A stretch of DNA of 64,000 bases from a virus (IMGVR_UViG_3300010430_000022:1-64000); one strand, 5' to 3'. Shown: positions 24,456-63,043, counted from the stretch's first letter. The notes: a model not told the origin generated them from the letters alone. A program made the numbers and translations.

Positions 24456-24905
24456 ATGACCTTGCGACGTAGATCCTTGCTTATCTTCGAGATGGATGAC
24501 CGTCTTCGAAGACAGCAACGTAACGCTGCCGCCAATCCAGGTGACGTAGACGCACAACGTGCTTTTGCGCAGAGTCGCAGGCGAGGTGCTACCACAGAGG
24601 TAAACAAGAAGCGTCCCATGCTTGGTCGAGGTCATACGGCTCGAACAGAACTACCTGACGGGGTAACGCTCTACTCCTCTTCGGTGCGACACGATGGTTG
24701 GTGGGGTGTTCATCACGGGCATCAGGAGCCTGACTCAAAGGATGTCTCAGATCACGGTCACGATCACGCACACAAGCTTGAATACGGCAAACAGGGCAAT
24801 ATCACTAAGGACGAGCCACCTCATCCCGATAAGGTGCGCGAGTTCCACGAGAAATACGTCGACCGCTTTCTAAACGGTCAAGCAAGTAGCAATCATGGAT
24901 CTTGA
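24456..24905 (+). CDS. His/Arg-rich putative internal head protein
   Basis: N-terminus MTLRRRSLLIFE; TACAAT 6 nt upstream of the ATG (leaderless-like). Confidence 0.55.
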   Translation: MTLRRRSLLIFEMDDRLRRQQRNAAANPGDVDAQRAFAQSRRRGATTEVNKKRPMLGRGHTARTELPDGVTLYSSSVRHDGWWGVHHGHQEPDSKDVSDHGHDHAHKLEYGKQGNITKDEPPHPDKVREFHEKYVDRFLNGQASSNHGS

Positions 24906-25137
24906 GCGTACCCCGTTGCTGCTCGAACGGCGCGGCCGTACCCGCCACGCGAGGCACAAGGCCGCCGATATCCTTCGGTCTCGCAGCGGTAGAACCAAGA
25001 AGCGCAAGAACCGTGGAAGGCTTTCGCGCCTGATTGCTCGTGAAATGGACACTCCACAGCGCTCTCCTCTCACTGGGCTAGCAATGGGTAACTTCACCGG
25101 AGGTATGCCTGGCGGCGGGATCATCAAGCACGCATGA
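24895..25137 (+). CDS. Basic putative internal head protein with RTPLLLE leader
   Basis: MDLERTPLLLE followed by an Arg/Lys-rich body. Confidence 0.65.
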   Translation: MDLERTPLLLERRGRTRHARHKAADILRSRSGRTKKRKNRGRLSRLIAREMDTPQRSPLTGLAMGNFTGGMPGGGIIKHA

Positions 25138-25490
25138 TCCGCCAGACGCTTCTAGTTGAGACCTTGGTCACCAGGACGATCACCCGTAGGGGCCCGGTGT
25201 TCATGTATCGCCGCCCCCAGGGCCCACCTGTCACTAGCGATGATTCGATTGATCGGTGGCTGCACAAGACCACTCAAGCCTTTGACTTCTCGCCGATGTT
25301 CAATGGGGATCAATATCAGTCGAGGATCGTCGCAGAGCGCTATCTAGCACACCTCAAGAAGGAATCTGCCCGAGAAGGCATGGACTGGGGAGAGGTTGCT
25401 AGTCGCCTCAAGCAGATCAGTCCTCACCTCCGCCGTGGCTTCCAGACCTTCTTCTCGTTCTTTGATGCGTCTGTTCGCACAAGCGGCTAA
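25134..25490 (+). CDS. Hypothetical protein with TLLVE leader
   Basis: ATGA/TAATG coupling to both neighbours; MIRQTLLVE. Confidence 0.55.
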   Translation: MIRQTLLVETLVTRTITRRGPVFMYRRPQGPPVTSDDSIDRWLHKTTQAFDFSPMFNGDQYQSRIVAERYLAHLKKESAREGMDWGEVASRLKQISPHLRRGFQTFFSFFDASVRTSG

Positions 25491-26179
25491 TGCTCGACGC
25501 TGAGACCCTTATCACCACGCTCGCCGGGCCACGTCCCATCAGCGATTTCATTGATAAGGGTCCAGTCCGAATCTTCACCTGGAATGGTGAACGGGTCACT
25601 GTCGGAGAGGTCGAGGTCAAGGACTCGACGCGTCTGGTCATTCCGTTCCGCGTAGAACTCGATGACGGCTCAAAGCTTGTGCTCTGCACCGAGACACTGG
25701 TCTTGCTCAGGAACGGGGCCCCTAGGTTCCCAGAGCAGCTTGTCTCTGAGACTTCGTTGCTCCCCCTCTACACGAAGAGCGATTCGTCGGGCTATCCGGT
25801 CTACCAAGAACCTGGCGAGTGGCACCGAGCAGCCTTGACGCCCAGCGACCGCAATCGTTGGCGACGCGTCAGCCGCATGGTGGCTGAATGGAAACTGGGA
25901 CGAAGATGCGCGCCAGGAGACGTAGTTTCCTACGTTTCAAAGGACCGAATGGACTGTTCTCCTGAGAACTTGAAGTTCCATCGGAAAGAACGAAAGAAGA
26001 CCGAGAAAAAGGTCGGGTTTGCCGAACCGCTCTTCGAAGCGCAGCGGTTTCTCGACAGGTACAATCACAAGGTAGTCCGCACCTACCTTGACACTAGCCG
26101 TAGTTTGCTGTCGATTAGAGGTTTAGGAACGGCTAACCTATCGGTTGGCGGAGTCTTCGTCTCCGTAGACCCGGAGTAA
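25490..26179 (+). CDS. Free-standing degenerate intein (Hint) protein with decayed HNH insert
   Basis: MLDAETLITTLAGPRPISDF (block A-like), FRVELDDGSKLVLCTET (block B-like, no His), RMVAEWKLGR...DCSPENL (HNH-like), NHKVV...ANLSVGGVFVS (block F/G-like, no HN). Confidence 0.7.
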   Translation: MLDAETLITTLAGPRPISDFIDKGPVRIFTWNGERVTVGEVEVKDSTRLVIPFRVELDDGSKLVLCTETLVLLRNGAPRFPEQLVSETSLLPLYTKSDSSGYPVYQEPGEWHRAALTPSDRNRWRRVSRMVAEWKLGRRCAPGDVVSYVSKDRMDCSPENLKFHRKERKKTEKKVGFAEPLFEAQRFLDRYNHKVVRTYLDTSRSLLSIRGLGTANLSVGGVFVSVDPE

Positions 26180-26182
26180 CCT

Positions 26183-28591
26183 GTGGCAATTCGAGATCGA
26201 GCACTTACCGCTCTCCGTCGCGTGTTTGGTGACGACAGAGATGAGCGGGAGCGCGCAGAGAGTCCTAGCGCCGACGCTCTACGTCACGCACCCTCCTCCA
26301 CCTACGCCATCTGGGGGCGTGAGGATATTGGCGGGCTTCTCTCGGTCTCCCAGAACCTCATGGATCGCTACGCGGACTACGAGGCAATGAATGACTACCC
26401 AGACATTCGTTGCTTCACCGGAGACATGAAGGTCTACGTTGTTGCCGACAACAACGTCATCGTGCCGACTCCGATCAAGACGATCTGCGAGAGCACCGAA
26501 ACCTTCGAGATCCTTGCCTACGACAAGAAGAAGAAGTGTTTGGTCCCGGTTACGGCTGAGCACCCTCGGATTTCAGGACGTAACGCCCCCATTCTTCGTC
26601 TCGAACTCAGCAACGGCGAAGTTCTCCGCGTTACCCCCAACCACAAAATCTTCTGCGTCGAGCCTCGTCCGGGCTACGTCGAGGCGAAAGACCTGAAGAA
26701 GGGCGCCTTCATTGTTGGTGCTCGTGCCGGCTTCGAGACTGAAGCCAAGAGCATGCTCACCGTCAAGACGGCTGGTGGTGTGTGGCTGAGCGAAGACCCA
26801 GTTCCGGACAGCTTCGCCCCCGAGGTCTATGACATCACGACCTCGACTCACAACCTCTTGGTCAACGGCGTCATTTGCCACAACTCGGCGTTCCACTACT
26901 TCGCCAACGACGCAACGCAGCCCAACATGGACAACGGGCGTGTCTGCTGGCTCCAGAGCCCAGACCAAGCGGTCGTGGACATGGGCGACACGCTCATCAA
27001 GCGCCGCCTCCGGCTTGAAGACGATCTGTTCTCCATCGCCTACTCGCTCTGCCAGTACGGGAACGACTTCGAAGAGGTGCTGGTCACTGAGAACGGCGTG
27101 GTCGGCCTCAACAACTTGGCAGCGCCCACCATGCGCCGAGTGGAGAAGCTCAACGGTAGCCTGATCGGCTACGTACAGGACGTCACAGGTCGCTTTACAG
27201 CCAACCAGGACGAATTGCGTCGGATGCTGGCGGGTGCGCTGACCATTCCCAAGCACGTCGCACTCTTCGAGGACTGGCAGGTCTGCCACTTCCGTTCGCG
27301 CTCAACGACTAGACGCTCACCCTATGGGGTGTCTGTTGGCGAAGGTGCGCGATGGATTTGGAAGCGTCTCGTCATGCTCGAAGACGCGGTCATGATCTAC
27401 AAGCTGACCCGTTCGCCGGCTCGTTACGCCTTCTACGTGGACGTCACGGACGTTCCACCGAACCGTGTCGAGTCTTTCTTGAAGCGCGCCAAGCGCGACC
27501 TCAAGAAGAAGAAGATGGTCAACCCCAACAACAACTTCCTCGACATGCGCTACAACCCGCTCAGCAACGATGAGGACTTCTTCATTGCTGTTCGCGACGG
27601 TCGTGCGCTCTCCCGTGTTGAAGTGCTCTCGGGCCCCGACTACCAGAACACAGACGACGTCGAGTATTTCCAGCGCAAGCTGCACGGCGCCCTCATGGTG
27701 CCTCGCGCCTACATGGGCCAAGACGCGCCAATTCAGGGTCGTGCAATTCTGTCCAACGAGGACGTTCGAGCCGCACGCGTCAGCCTTCAGATCCAAAAGG
27801 AACTGAAGAACGGCATCGAGAGCATCGTTCGCACCGATCTCGCAGCCCGAGGTCACGGTGCCCCGTGGAACGTAGATCTCGACGTCATGATGACCGTGCC
27901 CTCCAACATCTACGAGTTGGCAGCCATGGAGGTGAAGAACGCTCGCGCTGACTTTGCTGCCAGGATCCAGCCCTACGTCTCTATGCGCTGGCTGCTAGAG
28001 AATGTCTTCAAGCTCTCTGACGACGAGATCCGTGAGGTCGAGAAGCAGCGTCGACGCGAGGCCAATCTCGCCGATGCCATGGGTATGGACCCGTCCTTCT
28101 CCGCCTTTACGGGCGGGCGTCCTCCCGATCAGGATCCTGAGATGGACCCAGGAGCGGCAGGAGGAGACCCAGGAGCGGCAGCGCCTCCAGGTGGCGGTCT
28201 ACAAGAGGTTCCTGGTGCTGGTGGAGCCGGACTACAGGAAGTTCCTGGTGGTGGGCTGCAAGAAGTCCCTGGAGCAGGGCTGCAAGAGGTCCCAGGTAAC
28301 GGTCTCGAAGAAGTGCGTCCGGGTAGGAATGCCTCTCGTAATGAGTGGCGTGCTTACGACCGTCGTCGACGTCTTGAAGAGAATCGTTACCGCGAGTCGC
28401 GTCAAAACCACCAGAAGTTGGTGGATATGATCGGAAATCTCCAACAAAATGATGCGGGTTTTGCGCGCCGTTTGGACGAGACAACTTCCTTCTTGAAAGA
28501 GTTCAAGCAAGCGACCATGAAACGCGTCAATGGTCGATTGGTGGGCACTCCTTCAGCAGGAGCGGGTAGACCACAGGCTCGCGGTCACTAG
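26183..28591 (+). CDS. gp20: T4 gp20-like portal protein, intein-containing
   Basis: RYADYEAM, WKRLVMLEDAVMIYKLTRSPARYAFYVDV, EDFFI, DDVEYFQRKLHGALMVP motifs; position upstream of protease and MCP. Confidence 0.93.
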   Translation: MAIRDRALTALRRVFGDDRDERERAESPSADALRHAPSSTYAIWGREDIGGLLSVSQNLMDRYADYEAMNDYPDIRCFTGDMKVYVVADNNVIVPTPIKTICESTETFEILAYDKKKKCLVPVTAEHPRISGRNAPILRLELSNGEVLRVTPNHKIFCVEPRPGYVEAKDLKKGAFIVGARAGFETEAKSMLTVKTAGGVWLSEDPVPDSFAPEVYDITTSTHNLLVNGVICHNSAFHYFANDATQPNMDNGRVCWLQSPDQAVVDMGDTLIKRRLRLEDDLFSIAYSLCQYGNDFEEVLVTENGVVGLNNLAAPTMRRVEKLNGSLIGYVQDVTGRFTANQDELRRMLAGALTIPKHVALFEDWQVCHFRSRSTTRRSPYGVSVGEGARWIWKRLVMLEDAVMIYKLTRSPARYAFYVDVTDVPPNRVESFLKRAKRDLKKKKMVNPNNNFLDMRYNPLSNDEDFFIAVRDGRALSRVEVLSGPDYQNTDDVEYFQRKLHGALMVPRAYMGQDAPIQGRAILSNEDVRAARVSLQIQKELKNGIESIVRTDLAARGHGAPWNVDLDVMMTVPSNIYELAAMEVKNARADFAARIQPYVSMRWLLENVFKLSDDEIREVEKQRRREANLADAMGMDPSFSAFTGGRPPDQDPEMDPGAAGGDPGAAAPPGGGLQEVPGAGGAGLQEVPGGGLQEVPGAGLQEVPGNGLEEVRPGRNASRNEWRAYDRRRRLEENRYRESRQNHQKLVDMIGNLQQNDAGFARRLDETTSFLKEFKQATMKRVNGRLVGTPSAGAGRPQARGH
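26411..26884 (+). mobile_element. Mini-intein (158 aa, no homing endonuclease) in portal
   Basis: CFTGDMKV ... VTPNHKI (TxxH) ... VYDITTSTHNLLVNGVICHN|S with Ser +1. Confidence 0.92.
28196..28315 (+). repeat. Five GL[QE]EV(PG) tandem peptide repeats in the portal C-terminal tail
   Basis: GLQEVPG x4 plus GLEEV; synonymous codons differ between copies. Confidence 0.85.
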
Positions 28592-28652
28592 AGTTTCCGG
28601 CTGGAAACTCCGGGAAACTTCAAAGAAAGTTCGATCTTCCTGTCACAGGTAG

Positions 28653-28681
28653 TTGACGGGTATAGATATAGATTCTAAACC
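28653..28681 (+). promoter_or_regulatory. Possible sigma70-type promoter of the head operon
   Basis: TTGACG-17 nt-TAAACC in an AT-rich gap. Confidence 0.4.
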
Positions 28682-28709
28682 TAGGTATATCGAAGGTCAT
28701 AGGAAACCC

Positions 28710-29546
28710 ATGCCCGTTGTTCTCAAAAACGCAGTCGTCGACCAACTCCGCGCATCACGTTACGCGGACGATGCCATGTCGCGTCTCCGGGAGAACTCCT
28801 GGGAAGTGCAGCGCGGTGCGCTGGTGCGCATGGTCGAGTCGACTGAGTGGCGCTTCGGTCCTGCTGAGTTGATCGCCACCTTCGACCACCACGTCCTGGC
28901 CAAGTCGCCTAGCGGAGACATTGTTCAGGTCGAGTGGTCTACTGGTGATGAGGGTCAGATCTATCTGGGCCGCGCCGTTGTTCACGAGTCCACCACACCT
29001 GTGTCGGACCTGGGCTACGAAGTCATGGAGACCGCTCGCTCCGCTGTCGACAAGATCCTCGACGAGGACTACACAGCAGCCGGCCCCATGATCGCGTGCA
29101 TCACTGAGGCGCTTGACGTCGGCGGTGATCTTCAGCGCCAGATCGGCAACGAGGTGACTGTTCAGTCGCTCAGCCGCCGCGCCTGGTGGCACGACGTTGT
29201 TGGCCTCAACGAGGACACCGTCGAGAAGCTCCCAGAGGTGAATGTCGAAGACATTCAAAAGTCGGCTACCGACCTCCTTGCCTTCTTGAAGGAGCAAGCG
29301 TCCACGCTCTCAATTACTGCTCGTCAACTCGACGGCGGTAACGCAGGGCCAGAGATCGAATCTCTGGCTTCGGACGTCGTTGAGGATGTTCACCGAGCAA
29401 TCTCGGCGCTGATGAACCTCGACCGTCGCCGTACGGCCGAGGTGACCAAGATTTACGAAGCGGTCATGTCTGCGACGCCGCAGCTTCTCAGTGGGATCGC
29501 TTTCCTCTCACAGTTGTCCGAAGCCTCGGACGAGAACGTCAGCTAG
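28710..29546 (+). CDS. Hypothetical head-assembly/core protein
   Basis: AGGA RBS before ATG 28710; acidic; lies between portal and protease. Confidence 0.6.
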   Translation: MPVVLKNAVVDQLRASRYADDAMSRLRENSWEVQRGALVRMVESTEWRFGPAELIATFDHHVLAKSPSGDIVQVEWSTGDEGQIYLGRAVVHESTTPVSDLGYEVMETARSAVDKILDEDYTAAGPMIACITEALDVGGDLQRQIGNEVTVQSLSRRAWWHDVVGLNEDTVEKLPEVNVEDIQKSATDLLAFLKEQASTLSITARQLDGGNAGPEIESLASDVVEDVHRAISALMNLDRRRTAEVTKIYEAVMSATPQLLSGIAFLSQLSEASDENVS

Positions 29547-29575
29547 CCAGGTCGGAAGGCCCGAGGAGATTTCAC

Positions 29576-30727
29576 ATGATGCTTCCAGCTACAGGTCCGA
29601 CGACCTCCCTTATGGAAGACCTCCAGTCCCTCAACATGGTTGAGTCGAGTGGACCTTCTACAAAGGTCAAGCAGGTCAAGCAGTCTGACCCCGAAGGCGG
29701 AGACTACGCCGGCAAGCCTGGCAACAAGACCCCTGATCCGGGCGGTGACGTCGACCTGGAAACTGGTGACGCGGCTGCCGGTCACTACACCTACGTCCCC
29801 GGACGTGGTGACGAGAACGTCGGTCCCGACGGCAAGTACGGCAAGAGCCGTGGCGGCGCCAAGAACGAGGACTACGAGGACTCTTCGGGCAAGATGGTTC
29901 CGAGCTTCATGATTCCTCCCGCCGTCTCCGCTGACGAGATCGCCGAGGAGCAGGAGGCTCTGGCCGAGCAGGCTCGCGCTGGCCAACTGAACCGTGCTTG
30001 GGACGTCATCAACGCCTACTTCAGCGAGGACGACGACGGTCTCAACGAGGATGGCCTGCGCGGCGTCATCAACGCCATGGGCCACGCGATCAACGTCGCC
30101 GTCGAAGACATCGCCATGCTTCAGGGTGAGAACGTTCGCCTGACCGAGGCGGTCAACGACCTGAACCGGATCCTCAAGGAGTCCGAGCTTCACGAGGCAG
30201 CAATGCCCCCTGAGATGATGGCCAAGTACCAGGCCATGCAGGCCAAGGGCGACGACGACGACGAGGAAGAGGACGACGACGACGACGAAGACGACGAGAA
30301 GGGTTCGAAGCAGGCAGCTTCCTACCGCTCCCGTTCCAACCTTCACGAGGACGCTAGCCTCAACTCGATCCTCGACGAGGTTGCCTCCATTGGCGGCAGC
30401 CCTCGCCAGCAGGCGATCAGCGCCCAGAGCAAGCTGATCGAAGCCTTCGAGAGCGTGCTGGAGTCGGCCTCTGAAGTCGTCGACCGTGTTGTGGACGTGA
30501 TCCGTGACGACGAAGGTCTCGCTGAGGACGAGGAGATCGAGCTTCCCGAAGACGACGCGCGCCTCAAGGTCGCGAACTACTTCTACGGGATCGCCGAGGA
30601 CGCCCAGGGCTACCTCAACCGCCTGGCAGATGGCGACGTCGCCTTCCGCGTGGCCGAGGAAGACCTGAGCCGCTTGCACGCTGACATCCAGAACGGCATC
30701 GACGCGATGCACAAGATCCCCGCGTAA
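29576..30727 (+). CDS. Acidic prohead core/scaffolding protein
   Basis: Poly-Asp/Glu tract, helical, many hydrophobic-X-E sites (LMED, LNED, LTEA, LHEA, LHED, LIEA); position upstream of protease. Confidence 0.65.
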   Translation: MMLPATGPTTSLMEDLQSLNMVESSGPSTKVKQVKQSDPEGGDYAGKPGNKTPDPGGDVDLETGDAAAGHYTYVPGRGDENVGPDGKYGKSRGGAKNEDYEDSSGKMVPSFMIPPAVSADEIAEEQEALAEQARAGQLNRAWDVINAYFSEDDDGLNEDGLRGVINAMGHAINVAVEDIAMLQGENVRLTEAVNDLNRILKESELHEAAMPPEMMAKYQAMQAKGDDDDEEEDDDDDEDDEKGSKQAASYRSRSNLHEDASLNSILDEVASIGGSPRQQAISAQSKLIEAFESVLESASEVVDRVVDVIRDDEGLAEDEEIELPEDDARLKVANYFYGIAEDAQGYLNRLADGDVAFRVAEEDLSRLHADIQNGIDAMHKIPA

Positions 30728-30782
30728 GGAGACGTAGTCGAGGAACGGTTTCGGTAACCCACGACTAAGTCTGGAGACTTTC

Positions 30783-32654
30783 ATGACGACCAACACAATG
30801 AGCCCACAGGTAGAGCAGCGTTTCCGTGCAAACGCCAGCGCTACCCGTCGGCCTCTGGTCGACAACATGTTGGTGGAGTCTGAGGGCTTCACCAAGATGA
30901 CCGTCCTGGCCGAAGACTCTCAGAGCAAGGGCGCTCTGATTGTCGAAGGTCTGGTCGGTATCTGTGGAAAGGCGACGAAGAATCGTCGTCTCTACACAGA
31001 GTCGATCATGAAGCGAGAGATCAAGCGTCTTCAGGAACGGATCGATTCTCGGTCCCTCCTGGCTGCTGTGGATCACCCCACAGACGGCAAGTCGCGTATC
31101 CGTGAGGCTGGCGCCATCTGCGTTGGTCTCCGGTGCGAGGCCGACGGTCGGATCATCGGCAAGTACGAAATCGTCGAAGACTCGACCGGTGGTAAGGATC
31201 TCGCCGCATTCCTGCGTGCAGGTGCCTCCATTGGTATGTCCTCCCGTGGCCTGGGTTCGACCTCGGTCAACATGGAAGGCGTCCACGTTGTTGGCGAGGA
31301 CTTCAAGCTCCACGGCTTCGACTTCGTCGCTGATCCCGCTTGCGAGACGGCCTATCCCACACTGGTGTCTGAGGACGTCGACGCGGCACAGGTCGACGAG
31401 AACCAGCTTCGCGCAACCTTCGGCAACCTTGTCGAGCAGATCGAAGATCGCGCTCGCCAGGCTGGTGCCGAGATCGCTGAAGAAGAGGTTCGGGCTCAGG
31501 TCGAAGAGGAGTTCAAGTCGGCACTCGATGAGGCCGGTGGCAAGCTCCGTGAAGACATCAAGCTCCAGGTGGAGTCCGAGATCCGCGAACAGCTTCGCGA
31601 AGACTTCTCGGTCAAGCTCCTAAAGGCCCTCCAAGAGCAGCGGACTCAGATCGAGTCTGTTGTGCGCTCAGAGCTTCTCTCCGACCCCAAGGTCGGTGCC
31701 GCCAAGCGCTTCATGGAAGACCTCGCTCAGAAGCTCGTGCCCTTCGCACCGGCGCCCGACCAGCAAGTCGTCATGGACGATTACGAGGCCAAGCTGGCTT
31801 CGCTGCGTGAGGACGTCGAGAAGAACGAGGCTGCGGTCGGCGCCAAGGACAGCGTCATCAACGAGATGGCCGAGCGCGTTGAGGTCGCCGAACAGGCCGC
31901 TCGCTCGCTGGGCTACAAGCTCTACATCGAGCGCTGCCTTGAGGGTCGCGAGAACGCTGCTCACCTCCGTGAGATGATCGGCACCCCTGACGGCAGCGAG
32001 AGCGCCGACGATCTCCGTGATCGCGTCAGCGCAGTTCTGAACCAGGTCTCCGAGGCAGAGGATCAGGCCCAAGCGCAAGCTCAGTCCAAGATCAAGCTCA
32101 AGGAGCACAAGGCCGATCTGGCCCGCAGGAAGGCAGAGGTCGCAACCGAAGACTTCGACCGTTTCCGCTCTGAGATGGAAGGACGCTTCGAACGTCTCTC
32201 CACTCGCATGGGATCGCAAATCCGCGAGAAGGATCGTGCGCTCTCCGAGGCTCTCGGCCATATCGAGAACCTAGAGAGCACAGTGGGCCAGTCCCGTCGT
32301 CAGCTTCAAGAAGCTGACCTTCGCGCATACGCGGCCCGACGCGTTATCGGCCACCCCCGCGCAAACGACATTCTCTCCCTCGTTGAGAGTGGACGAGTGA
32401 CCTCGAAGGACCAAGTCCAGCAACTTGCCGAGCAGTGGGACAACACTGCAAGCGAGCCTGGCGGGGTCAGTGAGCGCATTCGTCGTTCACTTGGGCGAGG
32501 CCGTGAGGCCCCCACTGAGGACGACCAACAGCGGTTTACTCAACTAATGGAAGACCAGCAGACCATTCCCGGTCTTGAGGGCTTCGACACCACCATGGGA
32601 GAACTCCGCGCGCTGTCGGGGATCGATCATGACTCTTTCAATGGCAGATTCTAA
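30783..32654 (+). CDS. gp21: T4 gp21-like prohead protease fused to a coiled-coil scaffold
   Basis: NRRLY, VDHP (His), GMSSRGLGS (Ser), FDFVADPA; ~430 aa helical extension. Confidence 0.92.
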   Translation: MTTNTMSPQVEQRFRANASATRRPLVDNMLVESEGFTKMTVLAEDSQSKGALIVEGLVGICGKATKNRRLYTESIMKREIKRLQERIDSRSLLAAVDHPTDGKSRIREAGAICVGLRCEADGRIIGKYEIVEDSTGGKDLAAFLRAGASIGMSSRGLGSTSVNMEGVHVVGEDFKLHGFDFVADPACETAYPTLVSEDVDAAQVDENQLRATFGNLVEQIEDRARQAGAEIAEEEVRAQVEEEFKSALDEAGGKLREDIKLQVESEIREQLREDFSVKLLKALQEQRTQIESVVRSELLSDPKVGAAKRFMEDLAQKLVPFAPAPDQQVVMDDYEAKLASLREDVEKNEAAVGAKDSVINEMAERVEVAEQAARSLGYKLYIERCLEGRENAAHLREMIGTPDGSESADDLRDRVSAVLNQVSEAEDQAQAQAQSKIKLKEHKADLARRKAEVATEDFDRFRSEMEGRFERLSTRMGSQIREKDRALSEALGHIENLESTVGQSRRQLQEADLRAYAARRVIGHPRANDILSLVESGRVTSKDQVQQLAEQWDNTASEPGGVSERIRRSLGRGREAPTEDDQQRFTQLMEDQQTIPGLEGFDTTMGELRALSGIDHDSFNGRF

Positions 32655-32666
32655 GGAGGGACACCC

Positions 32667-34112
32667 ATGTTCCAGGCACGTTCAATGATTGCCGAGAGTG
32701 CAGAAGGGTGCGCCCTCGCCGATCACGGTATGGTTCGACAGTACGTCAACAAGTGGGCTCCCCTGCTTGAAGGCATCGAGTCCGAACTCGACAAGTTCAC
32801 CCCTCGTGGGCAGGCCCAGTATGTGAAGTCCGTCGCGGCCTTCATGCTGGAGAACCAGGCTCGACACCTCAAGCGGCTCTCTGAGGAGACTCGGGCGCTG
32901 TCGGTCGGCCCGTTCTTGAAGTTCGTCTTTCCCGTCATCCGACGCGCCGCCGTGCGGTTGGTTGCGACGCAGATTGCGTCCGTCCAGCCCATGACCGGTC
33001 CCATCGGTGGCGTGGCCTTCTACAGGCCACGTTATGCGACGGACAAGGGTCAGGTCGTCGCCGGCCAGGAGATGAACAAGACGTTCAACAAGTGGTACTC
33101 GTCGAACTTCATCGACGGCGAAGGCATTGGCACCGGCAACGGCACCAACACCGTCTTCTCCTCGAACCTGAAGTTCCCTCGGGTTCTCTCCGGCACCCTC
33201 CGGGTCCTGGTTCGCACGGCTGGCACGACCCAGACGGGCACCCTGGTCGGAACTGACAACGGCGCTGGCGGTCTGACCGCTGTTGCTGGCGGGCCTCTCG
33301 CTGGCGGCACGATCAACTACCAGGCTGGTCAGCTTCAGGTCAACTTCGCCGCCGCTCCGGCGACGACCGACGAAGTGCTCATTGAGTACAAGTACGACAA
33401 CGAACTGAACCCCCGGATCCCCGAAGTCCAGTTGGACATCGCGATCCAGGAGATCCGTGCGGAGTCGCGCAAGCTCAAGAGCCTGGCGTCCGTCGAGGCT
33501 GCGGACGACCTCCGCGCCCTCTGGGGACGTGACATCGACGCCGACCTCGTTGCTCACATGAGTGACGAAATGACGGCGGAGATCGACCGCGAGATCGCCG
33601 GCACGGCGCTGAACGCAGTCGAGGGTCTGGCCATGCTGGACTGGGACCGTGCGACTCCTTCGGGCGTCTCCGATCCTGAGCACCTCCAGTCGCTCGTGAT
33701 CCGCATGTCCGAGGCGAGCCACATCGTTCACCGTCGCACCCAGCGTGCGCCGACGAACTGGTGCATCACCTCGTCCGAGGTCGCTGCCCTCCTGGAGACC
33801 ATGCCCGGATTCGCTTCCGTGGACGATGGTCACGTCTACCAGGGAGGCATCATGAAGGGAGGTGTCCTCAACAGGAAGTGGGTTATCTACGTTGATCCCC
33901 TCTTCCCGCAGGACGAGATCCTCATGGGTTACCAGGGTCCTTCGATCCTGGACACCGGCATGATCTACTCGCCCTACGTGCCGATGGAGATCACGCCTAA
34001 CTTCGTTGACCCCAACGACTTCAGCCTCCGTCGCGCGATCCGCACGCGTCACAAGATCACCCTGATCCGGCCGGAGTTCTTCTCGAAGGTCAAGATCTCG
34101 AACCTCAACTAG
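32667..34112 (+). CDS. gp23: T4 gp23-like major capsid protein
   Basis: SVQPMTGPIG, AESRKLK, EIDREI, YSPYVP, DPNDFS..RAIRTR motifs; Gly/Thr-rich insertion domain; strong RBS. Confidence 0.95.
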   Translation: MFQARSMIAESAEGCALADHGMVRQYVNKWAPLLEGIESELDKFTPRGQAQYVKSVAAFMLENQARHLKRLSEETRALSVGPFLKFVFPVIRRAAVRLVATQIASVQPMTGPIGGVAFYRPRYATDKGQVVAGQEMNKTFNKWYSSNFIDGEGIGTGNGTNTVFSSNLKFPRVLSGTLRVLVRTAGTTQTGTLVGTDNGAGGLTAVAGGPLAGGTINYQAGQLQVNFAAAPATTDEVLIEYKYDNELNPRIPEVQLDIAIQEIRAESRKLKSLASVEAADDLRALWGRDIDADLVAHMSDEMTAEIDREIAGTALNAVEGLAMLDWDRATPSGVSDPEHLQSLVIRMSEASHIVHRRTQRAPTNWCITSSEVAALLETMPGFASVDDGHVYQGGIMKGGVLNRKWVIYVDPLFPQDEILMGYQGPSILDTGMIYSPYVPMEITPNFVDPNDFSLRRAIRTRHKITLIRPEFFSKVKISNLN

Positions 34113-35056: not shown

Positions 35057-36745
35057 GTGTATCAAGCACATACGCTACTGATCCTCGAAGACCTACTTGG
35101 GTCTCGGACCTTTCGTCGACTCATCGAGGGCAAAGACCCTGCGCCTGATCCCGAGCGCCAGTCGCGCCCGGTCATTCCTCCACATCTCCGCACGAGCCAT
35201 GAGGAGGACACGCACCCAGCGATGAAGCTGCCGGGCCACAAGTTCCCTCAAGCAGTGCATGACGTCGCGCACTCCATCAAGAAGGCTGGTGGACGCGCGA
35301 TGATGGTCGGCGGCTACGTCCGCGATACGCTGGAGAAGCATTTCCATGGAGGGGACGAGCCCTCCAAGGACTACGACATGGAAGTCCATGGGATGCACCC
35401 AGATCACCTGGATAAGCACTTGGACTCCATCGGACGAGTGGACAGAGTCGGCAAGGCTTTCGGGGTGATGAAGCTCACACACAAGAAGCACGACTTTGAC
35501 ATCTCGATCCCCCGCCGAGACAACAAGGTCGGTAAGGGGCACAAGGGCTTCATGCCCGAGCCTGATCCGCACATGACCATTGGCGAGGCTGGTCATCGTC
35601 GGGACTTCACCATGAACTCGGTGGCGATGGACCCACACACTGGGCATGTCTACGACCCGCACCACGGCATCAAGGACATCAAGAGTCGGACGCTACGGGC
35701 TACAGACCCCAAAGCGTTTGCTGAGGATCCTCTGCGTATTCTGCGTGGCGCTCAGTTTGCCGCCCGCAAGAAGATGACGGTTCACCCACACACCATGAAG
35801 CTGATGCAGAACGCCGGGCACGAGCTAAAGGATCTGCCTCGTGAGCGTGTTGGTGTCGAGTGGAAGAAGCTTCTCATGAAGGGCAAGCACCCTGAGCACG
35901 GCCTAAAGGTCTTGCACGACTCGGGTGCGCTGAAGCATCTTCACCCTGAGCTTCATGCACTGACAGACCACCAACACGATCCGCACGATCACACGAAGGG
36001 CACTTCGTTTGAGCACACAGGTCGGGCACTGAGCCATGTTGTGCATGCGACTAAGGGGCTGCCCGATGACTCTCGCGAATCGATCCACCACGCCACGCTG
36101 ATGCATAACGTAGGGCGACCGGCAGGTACGGATGACCACGCTTCGGCTGGCTCAGCTATCTCTCGTTCTACTGGCAAGAGCCAGTTTGATCTGGAGAAGA
36201 ACGTCGCCACCAAGACTCATAAGCTCGTAGGCGAGCACGGTGCTCCTCACGAGATTCACGAGGCACACAAGCGCGGCGAGAACACAGACGCGCACATTCG
36301 CCATCTCGCTCACCGCCTAGGACCGTCGAAGCCAACGGCCCACGACGGCTCGTCTATTGGTGATCTTCTACACGTCGCTCACGCGTCACATGTGGCAGAT
36401 GGTAGTGGTGACCCTCACCACGCTGGTGACTTCTTGCGCAAGCGTGCCAAGGCACTTGGGGTTCACGACGGGCCTCAAGAGCGGCTTGTTACCGGCAAGC
36501 ACCTGAAGGCAGATGGTGTCAAAGGCGGACGTCGTATGGGAAGAGCCTTGGACCACGCCCACCAGAGGCAGTTGGATGGTGATGTCACTACTCACGAGGA
36601 GGCGAAGAAGGCTGCACTCGATCACCTCGCACACCTCGAACGTGAAGAGGGGCCTGAACAAGGGAAGAAGCAGAAGGTCAATCGTCGTAAGAAGCCTCCA
36701 TTGGCGGAGAACTACTCGCTCTACGCACGCGTCTTTAGTGCTTAG
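35057..36745 (+). CDS. cca: tRNA nucleotidyltransferase (class II CCA-adding enzyme) with degenerate HD domain, His-rich
   Basis: VGGYVRD, KDYDME (DxD), VGKAFGV, RRDFTMN, EDPLRILRGAQFAAR, ERV..EW.K; HD motif reads LMHNVGRP. Confidence 0.92.
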   Translation: MYQAHTLLILEDLLGSRTFRRLIEGKDPAPDPERQSRPVIPPHLRTSHEEDTHPAMKLPGHKFPQAVHDVAHSIKKAGGRAMMVGGYVRDTLEKHFHGGDEPSKDYDMEVHGMHPDHLDKHLDSIGRVDRVGKAFGVMKLTHKKHDFDISIPRRDNKVGKGHKGFMPEPDPHMTIGEAGHRRDFTMNSVAMDPHTGHVYDPHHGIKDIKSRTLRATDPKAFAEDPLRILRGAQFAARKKMTVHPHTMKLMQNAGHELKDLPRERVGVEWKKLLMKGKHPEHGLKVLHDSGALKHLHPELHALTDHQHDPHDHTKGTSFEHTGRALSHVVHATKGLPDDSRESIHHATLMHNVGRPAGTDDHASAGSAISRSTGKSQFDLEKNVATKTHKLVGEHGAPHEIHEAHKRGENTDAHIRHLAHRLGPSKPTAHDGSSIGDLLHVAHASHVADGSGDPHHAGDFLRKRAKALGVHDGPQERLVTGKHLKADGVKGGRRMGRALDHAHQRQLDGDVTTHEEAKKAALDHLAHLEREEGPEQGKKQKVNRRKKPPLAENYSLYARVFSA

Positions 36746-39164: not shown

Positions 39165-39998
39165 GTGACAATGGCGACTGAGTTTCAAACGTGGAAGAAG
39201 GCTGTAGAGATCCCTACGGATCGTCTCGTCTTCACTGACTGGAACTGTAACGAGATGAGCCAGGAGAAGCTGGCTCATCTCCAAGCAGAGATCGAGAACG
39301 ATGAGGATCCAGAGGATCCTCATTTCGACGAGCCACTTCAGGTGATTCCGATTGCGGAGTCCGAAGGAAAGTTCCTCGTCGTAGGTGGTGAGCACCGCAC
39401 CAAGATCGCTCGCTCGCTAGAGATGCCAGCAGTCCCATGCGTGATCCGCAACGATCTGTCGAAGATGTCCAGGAAGGATCTGATCCTCTGGTCGGTTCGT
39501 CGCAACAACCTTCGTGGTCGAATCAACGCAACCAAGTATGCCGAGATGGAAGCCGAACTGGTTAACCACCACGGCATGACCTCTGAGGCAGCGCGGCGGT
39601 CCATGCTGATCGACGGTGACCTGGCCAAGGCGCTTCGGGCGACTCTGGCAGTCCGGGCGAACGAGAACAACGAGTCAGACGATGGGCACGACGGTAAGCG
39701 CCAGTTCGGCGACGACGTGGCAGACGCTCGTGAGGATCGACGCTCCAAGGAGGAGCTTCTCTCGGCGCTCAAGATGGCCGAGCAGGACGTGCTCCTCGAC
39801 TCTGCCGATACCGTCAAGCATGGCTACCTGTTCTTCGCTCAGGGCAAGAACGGTCAGATGCATCTGGTCGTCGACGAATCCCTGGAGCTACACGCACTCA
39901 TCAAGCAGATGGTTTCCACCTGCAAAGGCAATGACGCGAAGGTCGACGACTTCTTGACCAACGCGATTAGCGCTCAACTGACCTCGGAGACAAAGTGA
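39165..39998 (+). CDS. ParB/Srx N-terminal domain protein
   Basis: WNCNEM, PLQV, VVGGEHR, VPCVI motifs. Confidence 0.8.
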   Translation: MTMATEFQTWKKAVEIPTDRLVFTDWNCNEMSQEKLAHLQAEIENDEDPEDPHFDEPLQVIPIAESEGKFLVVGGEHRTKIARSLEMPAVPCVIRNDLSKMSRKDLILWSVRRNNLRGRINATKYAEMEAELVNHHGMTSEAARRSMLIDGDLAKALRATLAVRANENNESDDGHDGKRQFGDDVADAREDRRSKEELLSALKMAEQDVLLDSADTVKHGYLFFAQGKNGQMHLVVDESLELHALIKQMVSTCKGNDAKVDDFLTNAISAQLTSETK

Positions 39999-56141: not shown

Positions 56142-56154
56142 GTAGGAGAACAGC

Positions 56155-59202: not shown

Positions 59203-59885
59203 GCGATCCGAGGTTCATCGTTATCTCCGGCCTGATCGGTGTTGGTAAGAGCACGCTCTGTAAGAAGCTGGCAGAGCTTCTCGACTACGAACCGATCTTC
59301 GAGCCCGTCGAGGACAACCCCTACCTGGAGAAGTTCTACAAGGACCCCAACAAGTGGGCCTACCCGATGCAGGAGTTCCTCAAGCATCGGCGCTTCGCGG
59401 CCTATCAGTACGCCGCCTGGGGGATCAAGCACGGAGCCTTCAAGGGTGTGGTCCTCGACAGGTCTATCCACGAAGACACCGTCTTTGCAGAGATCAACGC
59501 CAAGATCGGTACCATCGACGCTCTCAACTGGAAGACCTATCTCCAGGGCTTCAACGACTTCCAGACGTTCCTGCCTGAGCCAGACGTTTACATCTATCTC
59601 GACGCCAGCCCAGAGACCTGTCACGCTCGGATCCTGGAGCGCGCTCGGCCGGCAGAGCAGCAGACCGGCTTCGAGGGTGATCCCGAAGACGCGCCGAAGG
59701 GAATCCCTCTCGACTACCTCCGGACCTTGCACCAGGGCTACCAGGACTGGCTGAAAGAGATCGCGCCTCGGATCCCCACAGTCAAGCTCGACTGGACGCG
59801 CTTCAAGACCACTGAGGACGCTTGGAAGTGGGTCAACGGTCAGATCGACGAGCGCAGTCGCTTCACACGGAGCTTGGTGGTCTAG
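59199..59885 (+). CDS. Deoxynucleoside kinase (dNK family)
   Basis: GLIGVGKST, EPVEDNPYLEKFY, DRSIHED..F, PDVYIYL, IPLDYL..L. Confidence 0.92.
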   Translation: MSDPRFIVISGLIGVGKSTLCKKLAELLDYEPIFEPVEDNPYLEKFYKDPNKWAYPMQEFLKHRRFAAYQYAAWGIKHGAFKGVVLDRSIHEDTVFAEINAKIGTIDALNWKTYLQGFNDFQTFLPEPDVYIYLDASPETCHARILERARPAEQQTGFEGDPEDAPKGIPLDYLRTLHQGYQDWLKEIAPRIPTVKLDWTRFKTTEDAWKWVNGQIDERSRFTRSLVV

Positions 59886-60442
59886 TAGCCACGCTTTGGC
59901 AACGCCCTAATCGTTCCGGTTAGGGGCAGGTGTCCGTGTTTGATCTTGCCTCCGACCTTACGAGGCACCGCAACACGATCTCCACGCTGCTGGGCCAGCA
60001 GATCGTTGCTCTGCACCGGCTTAGCTCCCGGCGCGTGCGAGATCGTGATGTGTGGGTGCTCCTTCTTCGTGAGGTGTTCGACACCTGAGACGCGAACAGC
60101 GTGGATCCCCATCTTCTCATCGTCAGCATGATGCGTCGCGTGGAGGTTCACTGTCTTCTTATGTTCCGGTGTGTTGTGGAACCGGTCGAGATCCTCTTGG
60201 GATGGGTCGTAGTTCAGCGTGACGTGATCGGCGGTTCGCGACTTGTACTTCGACGGGAAGTGCTGCGCCAACGCCTTCTTAGAGCCGTGGCTCAGTTCAA
60301 GCGCAAGATAGTGGCTGTCTGGGGAGTAGGGCGTTCCGCTAGCCGGCGCCGACTGTCGGTCAGACTTCGTTCGACGCTCACGGGGCGTAGGCGTTCCGGT
60401 CCCAAAGCCTTCGATCAAGAGAGGTGTTCGGCGAAGATTCAT
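59882..60442 (-). CDS. 2H phosphoesterase (2',3'-cyclic phosphodiesterase-like) with RTPLLIE leader
   Basis: Two HxT motifs: DHVTL and PHITIS, followed by KPVQSNDLL as in tRNA-ligase-type CPDase domains. Confidence 0.8.
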   Translation of the reverse strand: MNLRRTPLLIEGFGTGTPTPRERRTKSDRQSAPASGTPYSPDSHYLALELSHGSKKALAQHFPSKYKSRTADHVTLNYDPSQEDLDRFHNTPEHKKTVNLHATHHADDEKMGIHAVRVSGVEHLTKKEHPHITISHAPGAKPVQSNDLLAQQRGDRVAVPRKVGGKIKHGHLPLTGTIRALPKRGY

Positions 60443-61107
60443 GAGGTTTTTGGCATCGATCCGGCAGATCCCCAGTGCTCGTCGTCGACGTGATGCAGCG
60501 TGTGCTTCACTCCGAGGTCACTGAGAACCTTCCTGAAGTGTTCAATGTGCTCGGGACGGTCGTCCCACATGTGAACGTGTTTGAGATGTGGGTGCTCTGA
60601 ATGGAAACGCTTGAGCATGTGCCCCTTCCACTCAGCAGTCTTCATAGGCTTCTTCTTACCGTCCTGCGGAGGCTTCAGGAAGAGGTCGTGACCGTGCTTG
60701 TGTCCCCTCACCCCGAGCTTGTGCAGGGTATGAGACACAGCGTCTTGCATATCCGGCTTGGCGACGCGTCCGGTCATGACCACGACTCTGCTATGCGGAG
60801 ATGCTTTAGCGGCGTGATAGTTCTTGAGCGTGTGCTCGATTGGGTGCGTCTCGAACGGGTGACGAAGCGTCTTGTGGTCCCCCCACCAGTCACCAGGCTT
60901 GCTGCCTCGTGGATTCGTCCTGCTACGTGAGTGGTAGCGATAGAGATCCTTGTTCTGCGATGTTGGCTCAGGCGTCCTGGCCAGGGTGCCGTCCATGTCG
61001 AAGATGTGGAGGTGTTTCGCATTGCGAGACTCAATGAGGAGCGCAACCTCCTCTGCTCGGATGGCCTCAAGAATCGGGCTGATTGCTCGAATGGTGCGAC
61101 TTCTCAT
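60439..61107 (-). CDS. HAD phosphatase, Swiss-Army-Knife RNA-repair-like
   Basis: IFDMDGTL..TP (motif I), WW, MTGR (motif II), K, WDDRPEH (motif IV); translationally coupled to the 2H gene. Confidence 0.82.
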   Translation of the reverse strand: MRSRTIRAISPILEAIRAEEVALLIESRNAKHLHIFDMDGTLARTPEPTSQNKDLYRYHSRSRTNPRGSKPGDWWGDHKTLRHPFETHPIEHTLKNYHAAKASPHSRVVVMTGRVAKPDMQDAVSHTLHKLGVRGHKHGHDLFLKPPQDGKKKPMKTAEWKGHMLKRFHSEHPHLKHVHMWDDRPEHIEHFRKVLSDLGVKHTLHHVDDEHWGSAGSMPKTS

Positions 61108-61395
61108 CTATCCCTTATGCCCCGATCCTGGCAGCTTGGCACGTTTCACTACGCGGCCCTTGATCTTCGACTTCAACTGTCGCCTCTTCTCGGGTGGAAC
61201 GAAGATCAACTTTCCCTTACGGAAGATGTATTGGGGATGCTTCTTCGACCACCTTTTCCGCTCCTGTTGCCAGAGCCATTTAGCTGCTCGCTTAGCCCCA
61301 AAGGTGGCAGAGGGCCGTTTCTTGGACATCCGCTCCTTCGACGATTGGCGACGGACCTGTAGTGCCTCGCACAGAAGTGGTGTCCGGGTAAGCAT
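61108..61395 (-). CDS. Very basic small protein with RTPLLCE leader
   Basis: MLTRTPLLCE followed by a Lys/Arg-rich body; TAGACT 6 nt upstream of the ATG. Confidence 0.65.
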   Translation of the reverse strand: MLTRTPLLCEALQVRRQSSKERMSKKRPSATFGAKRAAKWLWQQERKRWSKKHPQYIFRKGKLIFVPPEKRRQLKSKIKGRVVKRAKLPGSGHKG

Positions 61396-61457
61396 GGACC
61401 CAGTCTACCTAACTACTTAGGTGCCAGCGACCATGTCTTTCGGCTAGAATCGGGAGG

Positions 61458-62726
61458 ATGACGCAAGGTAAACCGAAGATGAGTCGTGCGGCGCTACGAT
61501 GCGGCTCTGTAGCTGTGAGTGTGCTCAAGCCGGGCACTAAACGCTATGAGCGGTGGTTGGCCAGGCGAAACCGCCGCCGGGCTGCGACCATGCGGAAGAA
61601 GCAAGAAGAGGACACCATGTTCGAGGAGCGAGAAGCTGACAAGACCGGGGCGCTCACCTGCGGCGTCTTCCTCCCGCTCCCCTATGACCTCGCCAAGGAC
61701 TTCCCGGATAAGAGCGAGCACGACGACTCGGTGCCGCACTACACACTGCTCTTCGTGGGCCCTTGCACCCCTGCGCAGTTCAAGACGCTTGTCATGGTCA
61801 TTCGAGGTGTTGCGGTCAAGTTGAAGCCATTCCCTATGGACCTTGCCTCCTACGGCGAGTTCATGAACAAGGAGGGAATGAAGATCTCCAACATGGGGCC
61901 TAGCTTGATCGCTCGATTCCGAATGGCGGCTCTTCACGGCATACTCCGACGCGCCGTCGAGTCGCTGGCTAAAGGGGTCACGGTGAAGCACACCTACGGA
62001 CCTGGAGAGTCGAAGTCGATCCCATACGAAGCCCAGTTCAAGCCTCACGCGACCCTGGCTTACCTTCCGCGCATGATGCCCTACCGAGGCCCGAAGCCAA
62101 CTGGTAGTTGGAACGTCACTGAGCTTGAGGTCTGGGGCCACGAGAAGGTCCGGATCCCGCTCGGCAAGACCCTAGCGCGCCAGCCTATTGGCCTGACGCG
62201 TGATCCCATCAAGTTCGATTACCCCATGGCCGTCCCTGAGGTCTCGACTGGCAAAGGCAAGGGCAAGCCCAAGCTGGAGGACAGGATTCCTGGTGGTCTG
62301 GCCGATAATTCCGGCCCCGACGATTTCGACCCCAAGCAACTCGCGAAGGGCGTCAAGGTCGAGTTGGAGCACACCAGCAGCCGCGCCATTGCTACAGAGA
62401 TCGCCATGGATCATCTGAAGGAGGACCCTCGCTACTACTCCAAGTTGGAGAAGATCCATACCGAAAGCACGTCGTCGGGCAACATCGCTGCGCCAAACGT
62501 GAAGAAGTGGGGAGAGGCGTTCTTGCGCGAACCGCTGCACCTGCGAGCACGCAGCGGAGATCCATTCCTCCAGGGAGAGGATGTGGTCGGCGGCTCCATG
62601 GGTGCCATGGGTAAGGGGGTCGGTGGCTCCAGTGGGGATATCGGTCTCGACGGATCTCTGCCCTACCTAGAGGTGCAGAAGCAGATCGACAAGAAGCTGC
62701 GCCGGAAGAAGCTCAAGGGCCTGTAG
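61458..62726 (+). CDS. 2H phosphoesterase (LigT/Acb1-like) fused to a DUF5661-like domain
   Basis: PHYTL and KPHATLAY; then IPGGLAD...QLAKGVKVELEHT...EIAMDHLKEDPRYYSKL. Confidence 0.75.
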   Translation: MTQGKPKMSRAALRCGSVAVSVLKPGTKRYERWLARRNRRRAATMRKKQEEDTMFEEREADKTGALTCGVFLPLPYDLAKDFPDKSEHDDSVPHYTLLFVGPCTPAQFKTLVMVIRGVAVKLKPFPMDLASYGEFMNKEGMKISNMGPSLIARFRMAALHGILRRAVESLAKGVTVKHTYGPGESKSIPYEAQFKPHATLAYLPRMMPYRGPKPTGSWNVTELEVWGHEKVRIPLGKTLARQPIGLTRDPIKFDYPMAVPEVSTGKGKGKPKLEDRIPGGLADNSGPDDFDPKQLAKGVKVELEHTSSRAIATEIAMDHLKEDPRYYSKLEKIHTESTSSGNIAAPNVKKWGEAFLREPLHLRARSGDPFLQGEDVVGGSMGAMGKGVGGSSGDIGLDGSLPYLEVQKQIDKKLRRKKLKGL

Positions 62727-63043
62727 TGCTAGAGCGTACCCCCCTGCTCCTTGAACGAGACAAGAAGCTCGCCTTCCACGGCGGTTCACTCAACCGACAC
62801 ACCCCGCGGGAGAGAGCCTGGCTCCCAAAGCGCTATCGTGCGAAGCACAAGGATGGGCATTTCCGTCGGAACCCTAAGGGGAAGCTCAAGAAGCGCGCCG
62901 GTGATCCTTTGCGGGATGAGCCGCTTCGCCACGACATCGAGAAGCGCGCCAGAAACCGCCACAGGCACTCTCACGTTCACTCCGACGTCTCCCTAGACCT
63001 TATGCGGACTGAACTTCTGCTGGATCACGACAAGAAGACGTGA
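62726..63043 (+). CDS. Basic His/Arg-rich protein with RTPLLLE leader
   Basis: MLERTPLLLE; second degenerate copy LMRTELLLD near the C-terminus. Confidence 0.65.
   Translation: MLERTPLLLERDKKLAFHGGSLNRHTPRERAWLPKRYRAKHKDGHFRRNPKGKLKKRAGDPLRDEPLRHDIEKRARNRHRHSHVHSDVSLDLMRTELLLDHDKKT

Follow-up and report, generated by a model that had tools for sequence, protein, structure and literature searches.

Why otherwise unrelated proteins of one phage should share the same short terminal peptide is the question raised by positions 24456-63043 of the viral contig IMGVR_UViG_3300010430_000022, where a first-pass annotation had noticed a recurrent RTPLLxE peptide (hereafter, the tag) and taken it for an address of head cargo that ends in a site of the head protease. 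The window, i.e., the whole stretch of DNA that was analysed, comprises the first 64 kb (64,000 nucleotides) of this 74,465-bp IMG/VR contig, which stems from an uncultured phage. The guanine-plus-cytosine (GC) content of the contig is 59%, and from its CheckV completeness of 26% it follows that the genome is probably that of a jumbo phage of roughly 280 kb. Genes were called with a codon-usage log-odds model, for which long plus-strand open reading frames (ORFs) served as the training set. Megablast searching of 50,697 phage records with the head region as the query gave zero matches, and tblastn with the capsid protein led at best to an unannotated 595-kb metagenomic phage (33% identity) and to no cultured relative. 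In IMG/VR, 12 loci encode a capsid protein that is 76-98% identical to that of the window. The relatives used for comparison were four whole parent contigs, as well as two metagenome contigs with the RNA-repair cluster described below. A relatedness search with a neighbour gene of 161 amino acids (aa) gave just contigs that were already known.

The tag is common to about ten unrelated proteins, comprises 9-17 residues and terminates in the motif L/I-x-E. Its consensus reads M-x-L-x-R-T-P-L-L-x-E, whereby [RHQ]-T-L-L-[IV]-L-E and R-x-T-L-P-L-V-E occur as variants. All eight N-terminal peptides of the first-pass annotation were recovered at their positions: MDLERTPLLLE at 24895, MNLRRTPLLIE at 60442 (minus strand), MLTRTPLLCE at 61395 (minus strand), MIRQTLLVE at 25134, MTLRRRSLLIFE at 24456 and, behind GTG start codons, LERTPLLLE at 62726, TLERTNLIME at 46482, and YQAHTLLILE at 35057. 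The clear tags all end in [LI]-x-E with an invariant Glu, and the tag ends fall at ORF residues 9-17. In the six-frame translation of the 74 kb, RTPLL was found five times, of which four lie within 6 residues of an ORF start. Among the called proteins of the available contig, the regular expression (regex) [RHQ][TSQ].L[LIVM].E matched 7 of 680 N-terminal positions vs. 1 of 20,614 internal ones (Fisher p = 2.6e-10), whereby 7/8 matches lie inside the first 16 residues. After within-protein residue shuffling, a mean of 0.009 proteins carried the motif N-terminally (maximum 1 in 2000 shuffles) compared to the 7 observed, which bears out an enrichment at the N-termini. A motif-free all-against-all comparison of the N-terminal 16-mers yielded a clique of four (24895, 62726 and, on the minus strand, 59882 and 61395) with pair scores of 29-34, whereas control windows gave at most one pair at 28 or above, true paralogues aside. 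The looser cases 25134, 24456, and 35057 are indistinguishable from background within this genome alone; 25134 and 35057 are backed by orthologue sequence and 24456 by its position, as described below.

That the constraint acts on the protein level, as had been proposed, is supported by codon usage. Across 25 leader-like sites that were picked by regex in this phage and in relatives, 3 of which are spurious internal matches, the third codon positions had an entropy of 1.8-2.0 bits, whereas codon positions 1 and 2 of the tag residues R, L, L, and E had 0-0.6 bits. Free wobble bases next to fixed first and second codon positions thus argue for selection on the peptide and not on the DNA. The bodies downstream of the tag proved as unrelated as assumed: BLASTP among 11 mature bodies of tag bearers gave no pair better than E = 0.3, and the Pfam families differ among the bearers. 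The tag is conserved as strongly as catalytic motifs. In addition, the mature isoelectric point (pI) of all 12 of 12 bearers lies between 9.0 and 12.0, compared to a genome median of 5.5.

Three of the tagged genes, namely 24456, 24895, and 25134, belong to the structural block and lie shortly upstream of the portal gene. The first ORF (24456..24905, plus strand; 149 aa; looser tag at 24456-24491) scores weakly as coding sequence, occurs in this genome only and remained without a match in Pfam and PHROG searches. It is followed by a small, very basic protein of 80 aa (24895..25137, plus strand; tag at 24895-24927; mature pI 12.0) and by a 118-aa protein (25134..25490, plus strand), in which the tag at 25134-25160 precedes a helical domain. 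A Foldseek search of BFVD with a model of the 118-aa protein gave no match, and a protein-atlas search with this and the 1139-aa protein (see below) gave nothing informative. Further downstream, the tag is found at 35057-35089 on a CCA-adding tRNA nucleotidyltransferase (35057..36745, plus strand; PF01743, PF12627, PHROG 2244), where a linker of ~70 aa lies between tag and catalytic domain and the sequence AAGGAG is located 7 nt 5' of the GTG start. In the public call of this CCA gene (P0074, 507 aa) the tag is absent because the start was placed at Met56. The HD domain (PF01966), which is present in most CCA homologues, was not detected in the CCA enzyme of the window. A Gly-rich basic protein of 94 aa (46482..46766, plus strand) carries the tag at 46482-46514, and the tag of its G001 counterpart is identical.

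Four tagged genes are clustered beside a Ro60 gene, and ~20 tRNA genes as well as a tmRNA gene then follow. They encode a 2H phosphoesterase of the CPDase/CNPase-like type with a basic linker (59882..60442, minus strand; tag at 60410-60442), an RNA-repair-type HAD phosphatase (60439..61107, minus strand; PF10307, E = 1.4e-13), a very basic protein of 95 aa (61108..61395, minus strand; tag at 61366-61395; mature pI 12.0), and a basic protein of 105 aa (62726..63043, plus strand; tag at 62726-62755). The 2H phosphoesterase has two HxT/S motifs and a weak similarity to PF08302, and the top Foldseek matches of its AlphaFold 2 (AF2) model are CNPase and LigT. The HAD phosphatase presents the looser extension MRSRTIRAISPILE at 61066-61107, followed by ...ALLIE, and the L069 orthologue has the same extension. 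Besides this HAD phosphatase, two bearers that are absent from the first-pass annotation lie beyond the end of the window, namely 68348 with MALYTAQTLLVLE and 73232 (minus strand) with MNLHDRIRRSRTLPLVE, the latter being an AAA_33 kinase that is polynucleotide-kinase-like. The bearers without family assignment are basic and have 80-150 residues, whereby three of them have a mature pI of 11-12. The RNA-repair neighbourhood as a whole (59199-63043 together with L025 5252-6994, i.e., G000 63252-64994) encodes a deoxynucleoside kinase, the 2H esterase, the HAD phosphatase and a 422-aa protein that consists of a LigT-like 2H domain and DUF5661. Its Ro60 protein combines TROVE and vWA domains with the MIDAS sequence DTSGS, and a Sir2-family gene also follows, together with the tRNA and tmRNA genes. 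A relatedness search with the 422-aa LigT-like protein matched only the DUF5661 part, in unrelated jumbo phages.

The first-pass annotation had also listed C-terminal copies, of which two stood and one did not. In the 1139-aa basic protein (39995..43414, plus strand), for which family searches gave no match, the tag-like RTRLVINE at 43352-43375 lies 12 residues before the stop; the pattern LF[VL]RTRLV[IV]NE|[ST] is kept in the G001 orthologue and, in a looser form, in that of G003. The terminal LLNRTPLSV of the same protein is not conserved in the orthologues and is probably a chance occurrence. The 62726 protein has a C-terminal copy, RTELLLD, at 63005-63025, and its two tag copies differ in DNA. 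The C-terminus DLMRTELLLDHDK is kept in the one orthologue found, which reads MKRTPLLFE...DLMRTELLLDHDKPT.

Comparison with the relatives revealed that the tag is retained among the orthologues of five families at 38-79% identity. Orthologues of the 24895 family (G001, G002, G005, and L059) keep the tag as well as a C-terminal GGI[IM][KR]H[AS], whereas the middle has diverged; their tags include MNLERTPLLLE, MIPERTPLLLE, and MILERTTLLLE. For the 118-aa family the orthologue tags are MNRTPLLLE, MRRSTLLLE, and MRRQSLLVE, for the repair cluster MLTRTPLLVE (L069/L070, 61395 gene), MKRTPLLIE, and MKRTPLLFE, and for 2H orthologues of 38-79% identity from a collection of 5.8 billion proteins MTLQRKPLLTE, MRRTPLLIE, and MRLRRIPLLIE. 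One distant 2H homologue begins right at the domain, without tag or extension. The kinase orthologues keep R[RK]S[RK]TLP[LM][VI]E, while distant kinases are without the entire extension of ~45 residues. The CCA enzymes present a similar pattern: the G001 orthologue starts with MFTPRTLLILE, the enzyme of G003, a relative whose capsid protein is 92% identical, has neither tag nor extension, and many metagenomic CCA enzymes, 40-56% identical, have extensions of 100-130 residues beginning ...LYRTPLLLE, in which L, R, P, L, and L are invariant. A profile of the 118-aa family searched against 1.84 billion representatives yielded 23 clusters, and the N-termini of distant members include MKRRPLKTLDE, MQRRPLRLVE, MDREPLLIE, and MTRTPLLLE. 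Thus, the core R-x-P-L-hydrophobic-x-E is old and extends beyond this clade. IMG/VR scans for the exact tag pattern found it in this clade only, apart from chance matches at non-N-terminal places.

In the AF2 models, nearly all residues 1-36 of the 2H enzyme have a pLDDT (the per-residue confidence score) below 50, with the domain at 44-186, and almost all residues 1-26 of the 118-aa protein are below 50, with residues 36-116 being helical. Tag and linker at low pLDDT ahead of confidently modelled domains therefore indicate that the tag is an appended unstructured module. The locus upstream of the portal gene harbours 0, 2, or 3 tagged genes depending on the relative. ORF 24456 starts precisely at the canonical tag position of the relatives, behind a conserved hairpin and the element GTGTACAATCC, which suggests, from the sequence comparison, that cassettes are exchanged at the tag. 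At a distance of 7 nt from the first tagged gene, on its upstream side, the window contains at 24400-24455 the hairpin GGCTCCGGGTAACCGGGGCC and then GCGTGTACAATCC, an arrangement that is kept in five relatives. TACAAT has just two occurrences in the 74 kb. By analogy to the PeSL elements of T4-type phages, hairpin and element may constitute a terminator-promoter cassette; a scan of the tag locus for sigma-70 promoters and terminators gave nothing above the shuffle control. Just upstream of this locus, at 23215-23523, there is a small ORF with a lipoprotein-type signal (…LLLMTGC…), which is conserved in the relatives.

More distant phages (P0080-P0105, alignment A3; L072 8654-9781; P0007) have the tag followed by a module SWDLGYHHAxRGK...EPDNP...AYxAGY. 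CCA enzymes carry this module, as does a different protein of 375 aa whose gene neighbours Ro60 and HAD genes; a 2H esterase has it in a looser form. In P0212 and P0214, the 118-aa family forms the C-terminal domain after the N-terminal half of a 2H phosphoesterase (PF13563, weak similarity to the anti-CBASS protein Acb1), and one fusion protein of this type starts with MIFKPLLIE. Since the fused 2H enzymes resemble Acb1 weakly at Pfam level, the tagged 2H enzyme may either repair RNA ends or degrade signalling nucleotides.

A T4-type head module is located at 26-34 kb. It comprises genes for a portal, for two proteins without assignment, for an S77 protease and for a gp23-type capsid protein. 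The protease gene (30783..32654, plus strand; PF03420, E = 6e-14; PHROG 207), which had been called a gp21 homologue beforehand, is confirmed as a member of the S77 (T4 gp21) family. Its product aligns with the T4 gp21 structure 5JBL (E = 3e-11), with His (VDHP) and Ser (SSRGLGS) in register, so that the protease is apparently active, as judged by the catalytic residues kept. It has a C-terminal extension of ~400 aa that is rich in hydrophobic-x-E sites. At residues 22-32 (30846-30878) it carries RRPLVDNMLVE, which is conserved in four relatives. Among ~84,000 called residues, the pattern R[RTSK]PL[LVI] was found in the tags and in this protease N-terminus, the sole exception being an internal match in the portal ORF of G002.

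The two proteins encoded between portal and protease occupy the gene positions expected of a core and resemble T4 core components in composition. The first (28653..29546, plus strand), a candidate prohead core protein without a family match that probably begins at an internal Met (MPVVLK...), has 4.0 [LIVMF]xE sites per 100 aa. The second (29576..30727, plus strand) is a candidate scaffold; it is acidic, has the conserved N-terminus MMLPATGPTTSLME and contains 4.4 hydrophobic-x-E sites per 100 aa. Together with the protease tail, these two proteins reach 4.0-5.3 such sites per 100 aa compared to a genome mean of 1.6, and the density in T4 gp22, gp68, and gp21 is 3.3-6.0 per 100 aa. The major capsid protein (32667..34112, plus strand; PF07068, E = 5.5e-55) starts with MFQARSMIAE at 32667-32696, and this 10-mer is the same in G001, G002, G003, and G005 but for one S/Q change. 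The N-terminus of the scaffold candidate ends ...TTSLME and is, like the capsid peptide, short, conserved and terminated by hydrophobic-x-E. The portal gene (26183..28591, plus strand) is of the T4 gp20 type (PF07230, E = 8e-48) and contains an intein (PF14890, E = 1e-10). Its product has 802 aa here, while those of relatives have 1230, over 2123, and 2599 aa (loci L014-L016, i.e., G001 18798-26597; L020, i.e., G002 65887-69579; and L059 3453-9821), which suggests that the portal genes of the relatives hold other numbers or sizes of inteins.

A possible further substrate of the head protease is encoded at 43891..46473 (plus strand). This basic protein of 860 aa starts with ...SPALMME, ends with ...PSRFMKRR and contains five DPxxFM[AG]E sites at a spacing of ~76-88 residues. 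The sites are conserved in relatives and vary in number, with five here, four in G001 and at least one in G003. From its sequence, the protein looks like a candidate polyprotein that would be chopped by the head protease into basic peptides. The region 126-22554, upstream of the head module, encodes many paralogous proteins of 480-650 aa in a long array, with ~60-aa and Pro/Gly-rich proteins in between; these are presumably fibre or decoration proteins. At 48703-49563, two Clp_N repeats are fused to a MazG pyrophosphohydrolase domain, which is an unusual pairing.

Taken together, the tag exists, is N-terminal, modular and under protein-level selection, and fits L/I-x-E, and the phage encodes a head module with a His/Ser-bearing protease. 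We consider it probable, at about 0.65, that the tag is a lineage-specific capsid-targeting propeptide, i.e., a version of T4's capsid-targeting sequence. Late in infection, while the T4-type prohead assembles, the tag would bind to its scaffolding core, and the shell would thereby close around the attached protein. Cleavage after the invariant Glu in L/I-x-E by the S77 (gp21-type) prohead protease would follow, and the mature basic protein would remain with the DNA and be injected into the next host. The predicted cargo would comprise the small, very basic proteins and an RNA-end-repair set, consisting of the CCA-adding enzyme, the 2H phosphoesterase, the HAD phosphatase, and the AAA_33 kinase outside the window. 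The T4-type head module, the RRPLV element of the protease, the uniformly basic bearers and the strictly N-terminal position of the tag all speak for this capsid function. Moreover, the relatives differ in how many tagged genes precede the portal gene, and one insertion falls exactly at the tag, which is reminiscent of the polymorphic ip loci of T-even phages.

Several points weigh against capsid targeting. As regards the proposal of a head-cargo address with a protease site, all computable predictions came out in its favour, whereas core binding, cleavage, packaging and injection of the tagged proteins are steps that we infer, with 26% of the genome at hand. No cultured phage with the tag was found by megablast, capsid tblastn or CCA tblastn; when the tagged CCA enzyme was compared with cultured phages by tblastn, every match started after the extension. 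The scaffold candidate has no BLASTP similarity to T4 gp22, and therefore its assignment is based on position and composition. The generic pattern of two hydrophobic residues, x, and E has no N-terminal enrichment beyond the tag class. Among the bearers that could be identified, most are enzymes of RNA repair, and no paper on virion-packaged tRNA nucleotidyltransferases or RNA-repair cargo was found in a literature search. RNA-binding enzymes, too, would be expected to have a basic pI. Since the bearers share a function besides the tag, a cytoplasmic repair complex would fit equally, and the fusion of the 118-aa family domain to a 2H phosphoesterase in other phages points the same way.

It could thus be that the tag is a docking peptide, which assembles the RNA-repair proteins into a cytoplasmic complex and has no role at the capsid. 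Candidates for the hub of such a complex are Ro60, which would bind through its vWA/MIDAS site, and the LigT-like protein of 422 aa, which carries no tag. The identifiable bearers, i.e., CCA enzyme, 2H esterase, HAD phosphatase, and kinase, are what would be expected in this case, and three of the tagged genes plus one more lie in one cluster beside the Ro60, tRNA and tmRNA genes. The MIDAS sequence DTSGS of the phage Ro60 is intact and could bind an acidic ligand residue, the 118-aa (25134) family domain is joined to a 2H enzyme elsewhere, and in L072 a related tag with its module is found beside Ro60 and HAD genes. However, docking leaves unexplained why the tag is strictly confined to the extreme N-terminus, why its end is a site for the S77 protease that the phage itself encodes, why an RxPL[LV] element recurs in the N-terminus of that protease, and why three tagged genes adjoin the portal gene in the structural block. 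In addition, peptide docking on Ro60 has no precedent known to us. Overall, we regard docking, which is the main rival reading, as unlikely.

Alternatively, the tag might be a pro-sequence that is removable by the protease, serving as a timing device, e.g., by holding the enzymes inactive or unstable before they are cut, or as a degron for an AAA+ protease of host or phage, in either case without a targeting role. In favour of this, the tag end is an L/I-x-E site, the tag, like degrons, is part of a disordered tail, and the phage encodes the Clp_N-domain protein fused to MazG. However, five to six conserved positions (L, R, T, P, L) lie upstream of the site, which is beyond the needs of gp21-type cleavage (PMC9026906). 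Because gp21-type proteases act inside the prohead, a substrate would first have to reach the prohead, and the tag resembles no known degron. Hence, a pro-sequence or degron without targeting is quite unlikely.

An export signal of the Tat or Sec type might be considered, given the start with RR-x-hydrophobic, and some tags (RRTPLL or RRRSLL) are indeed superficially twin-arginine-like. However, there is no hydrophobic (h-) region, the stretch of 20-30 residues behind the tag is charged or basic (e.g., ERRGRTRHARHK), the tag ends in Glu, and the cargo consists of nucleic-acid enzymes, which makes export very improbable. A Tat signal peptide, with RR, h-region and AxA, was rejected, as charged or basic residues come after the tag. 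Finally, the motif is short and its three looser cases are each weak, but the enrichment statistics, the variable wobble bases, the occurrence on both strands and the differing start codons leave practically no room for chance or for a nucleotide-level element overlapping the start codons, and the variable wobble bases exclude a DNA-level ribosome-binding or regulatory element.

If capsid targeting is accepted, the question arises what the cargo is for. We tentatively suggest, as a possibility somewhat short of probable, that the tag marks a virion-delivered kit for RNA-end repair and counter-defence, packed together with small basic partner proteins. The injected enzymes would counter tRNA-end damage or cyclic-nucleotide alarm signals before the phage genes are expressed. 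If this holds true, R-x-P-L-hydrophobic-x-E would serve as a code from which the injected proteome could be read in a wider set of uncultured soil and sediment phages. If the tag does load proteins into the head, the injected proteome of a whole uncultured clade of giant phages could be listed from sequence only. It would also mean that phages deliver ready-made RNA repair or cyclic-nucleotide hydrolysis at infection, with a cargo that, unlike anti-restriction proteins, mends tRNA 3' ends and 2',3'-cyclic phosphate ends. This would bear on how phages escape from tRNA-cleaving and nucleotide-signalling defences. Furthermore, the "package and clip" principle of T4 would be extended to a distant GC-rich lineage with a different, well-defined consensus, which would offer a useful comparison for how scaffolds recognise their cargo.

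The closest known system is that of T4, in which gp21 cleaves after L/I-X-E (PMC9026906). There, the first 10 residues of IPIII constitute a capsid targeting sequence (CTS), whereby upstream residues are responsible for targeting and residues 8 and 10 for processing, and short N-terminal propeptides of 10-20 residues are found on gp24, the internal proteins and Alt (PMC9026906, PMC5694885, PMC3012670). According to the T4 genome, the N-termini read MAKINELLRE (gp24), MNEPQLLIE (gp21), MLKEQLIAE (gp22), and MKTYQEFIAE (IPII/IPIII). The T4 CTSs of IPI, IPII, IPIII, and Alt and the propeptides of gp24, gp21, and gp22 are removed by gp21 and are, like the tag, short, N-terminal and attached to unrelated proteins; T4 peptides and tags have the same length and the same hydrophobic-hydrophobic-x-Glu end. 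In both phages, an S77 protease accompanies a gp20/gp23 head, the cargo, known or predicted, is basic, and one locus varies in how many tagged genes it holds. They differ in the consensus, which is RTPLLxE here and MKTYQEFIAE in T4, and in the age of the copies: the tag DNA of T4 ipII and ipIII is identical, whereas the copies of this GC-rich, uncultured lineage, which is distant from T4, are old and diverged at the wobble positions. The function of the T4 CTS is established, whereas that of the tag is predicted.

The jumbo phages phiKZ, 201phi2-1, and SPN3US likewise have a gp21-like protease that trims many head-internal proteins, among them ejection and inner-body proteins, after Glu, and in SPN3US conserved, CTS-like N-termini occur on diverged paralogues (PMC9026906, PMC5694885). 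Their propeptides are, however, mostly over 100 residues long and cut at S/A/G-x-E, unlike the L/I-x-E of the tag. Moreover, these phages are without a gp23-type head module at Pfam level, and their cleavages are backed by mass spectrometry, whereas the tag is sequence-based. For DarB of P1, an N-terminal signal suffices to load a large enzyme, as well as a reporter, into a myovirus head for delivery. The Dar proteins, however, have no common consensus and no described protease-site ending, and they belong to another head lineage than the one described here. In kind, the tag appears to correspond to the CTS system of T4, of whose defining features the N-terminal position, the L/I-x-E end, the S77 protease, and the sharing among unrelated proteins are found in this phage. 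What is distinctive compared to T4, where the cargo consists of anti-restriction or ADP-ribosylating proteins, is above all the predicted cargo of large RNA-repair enzymes.

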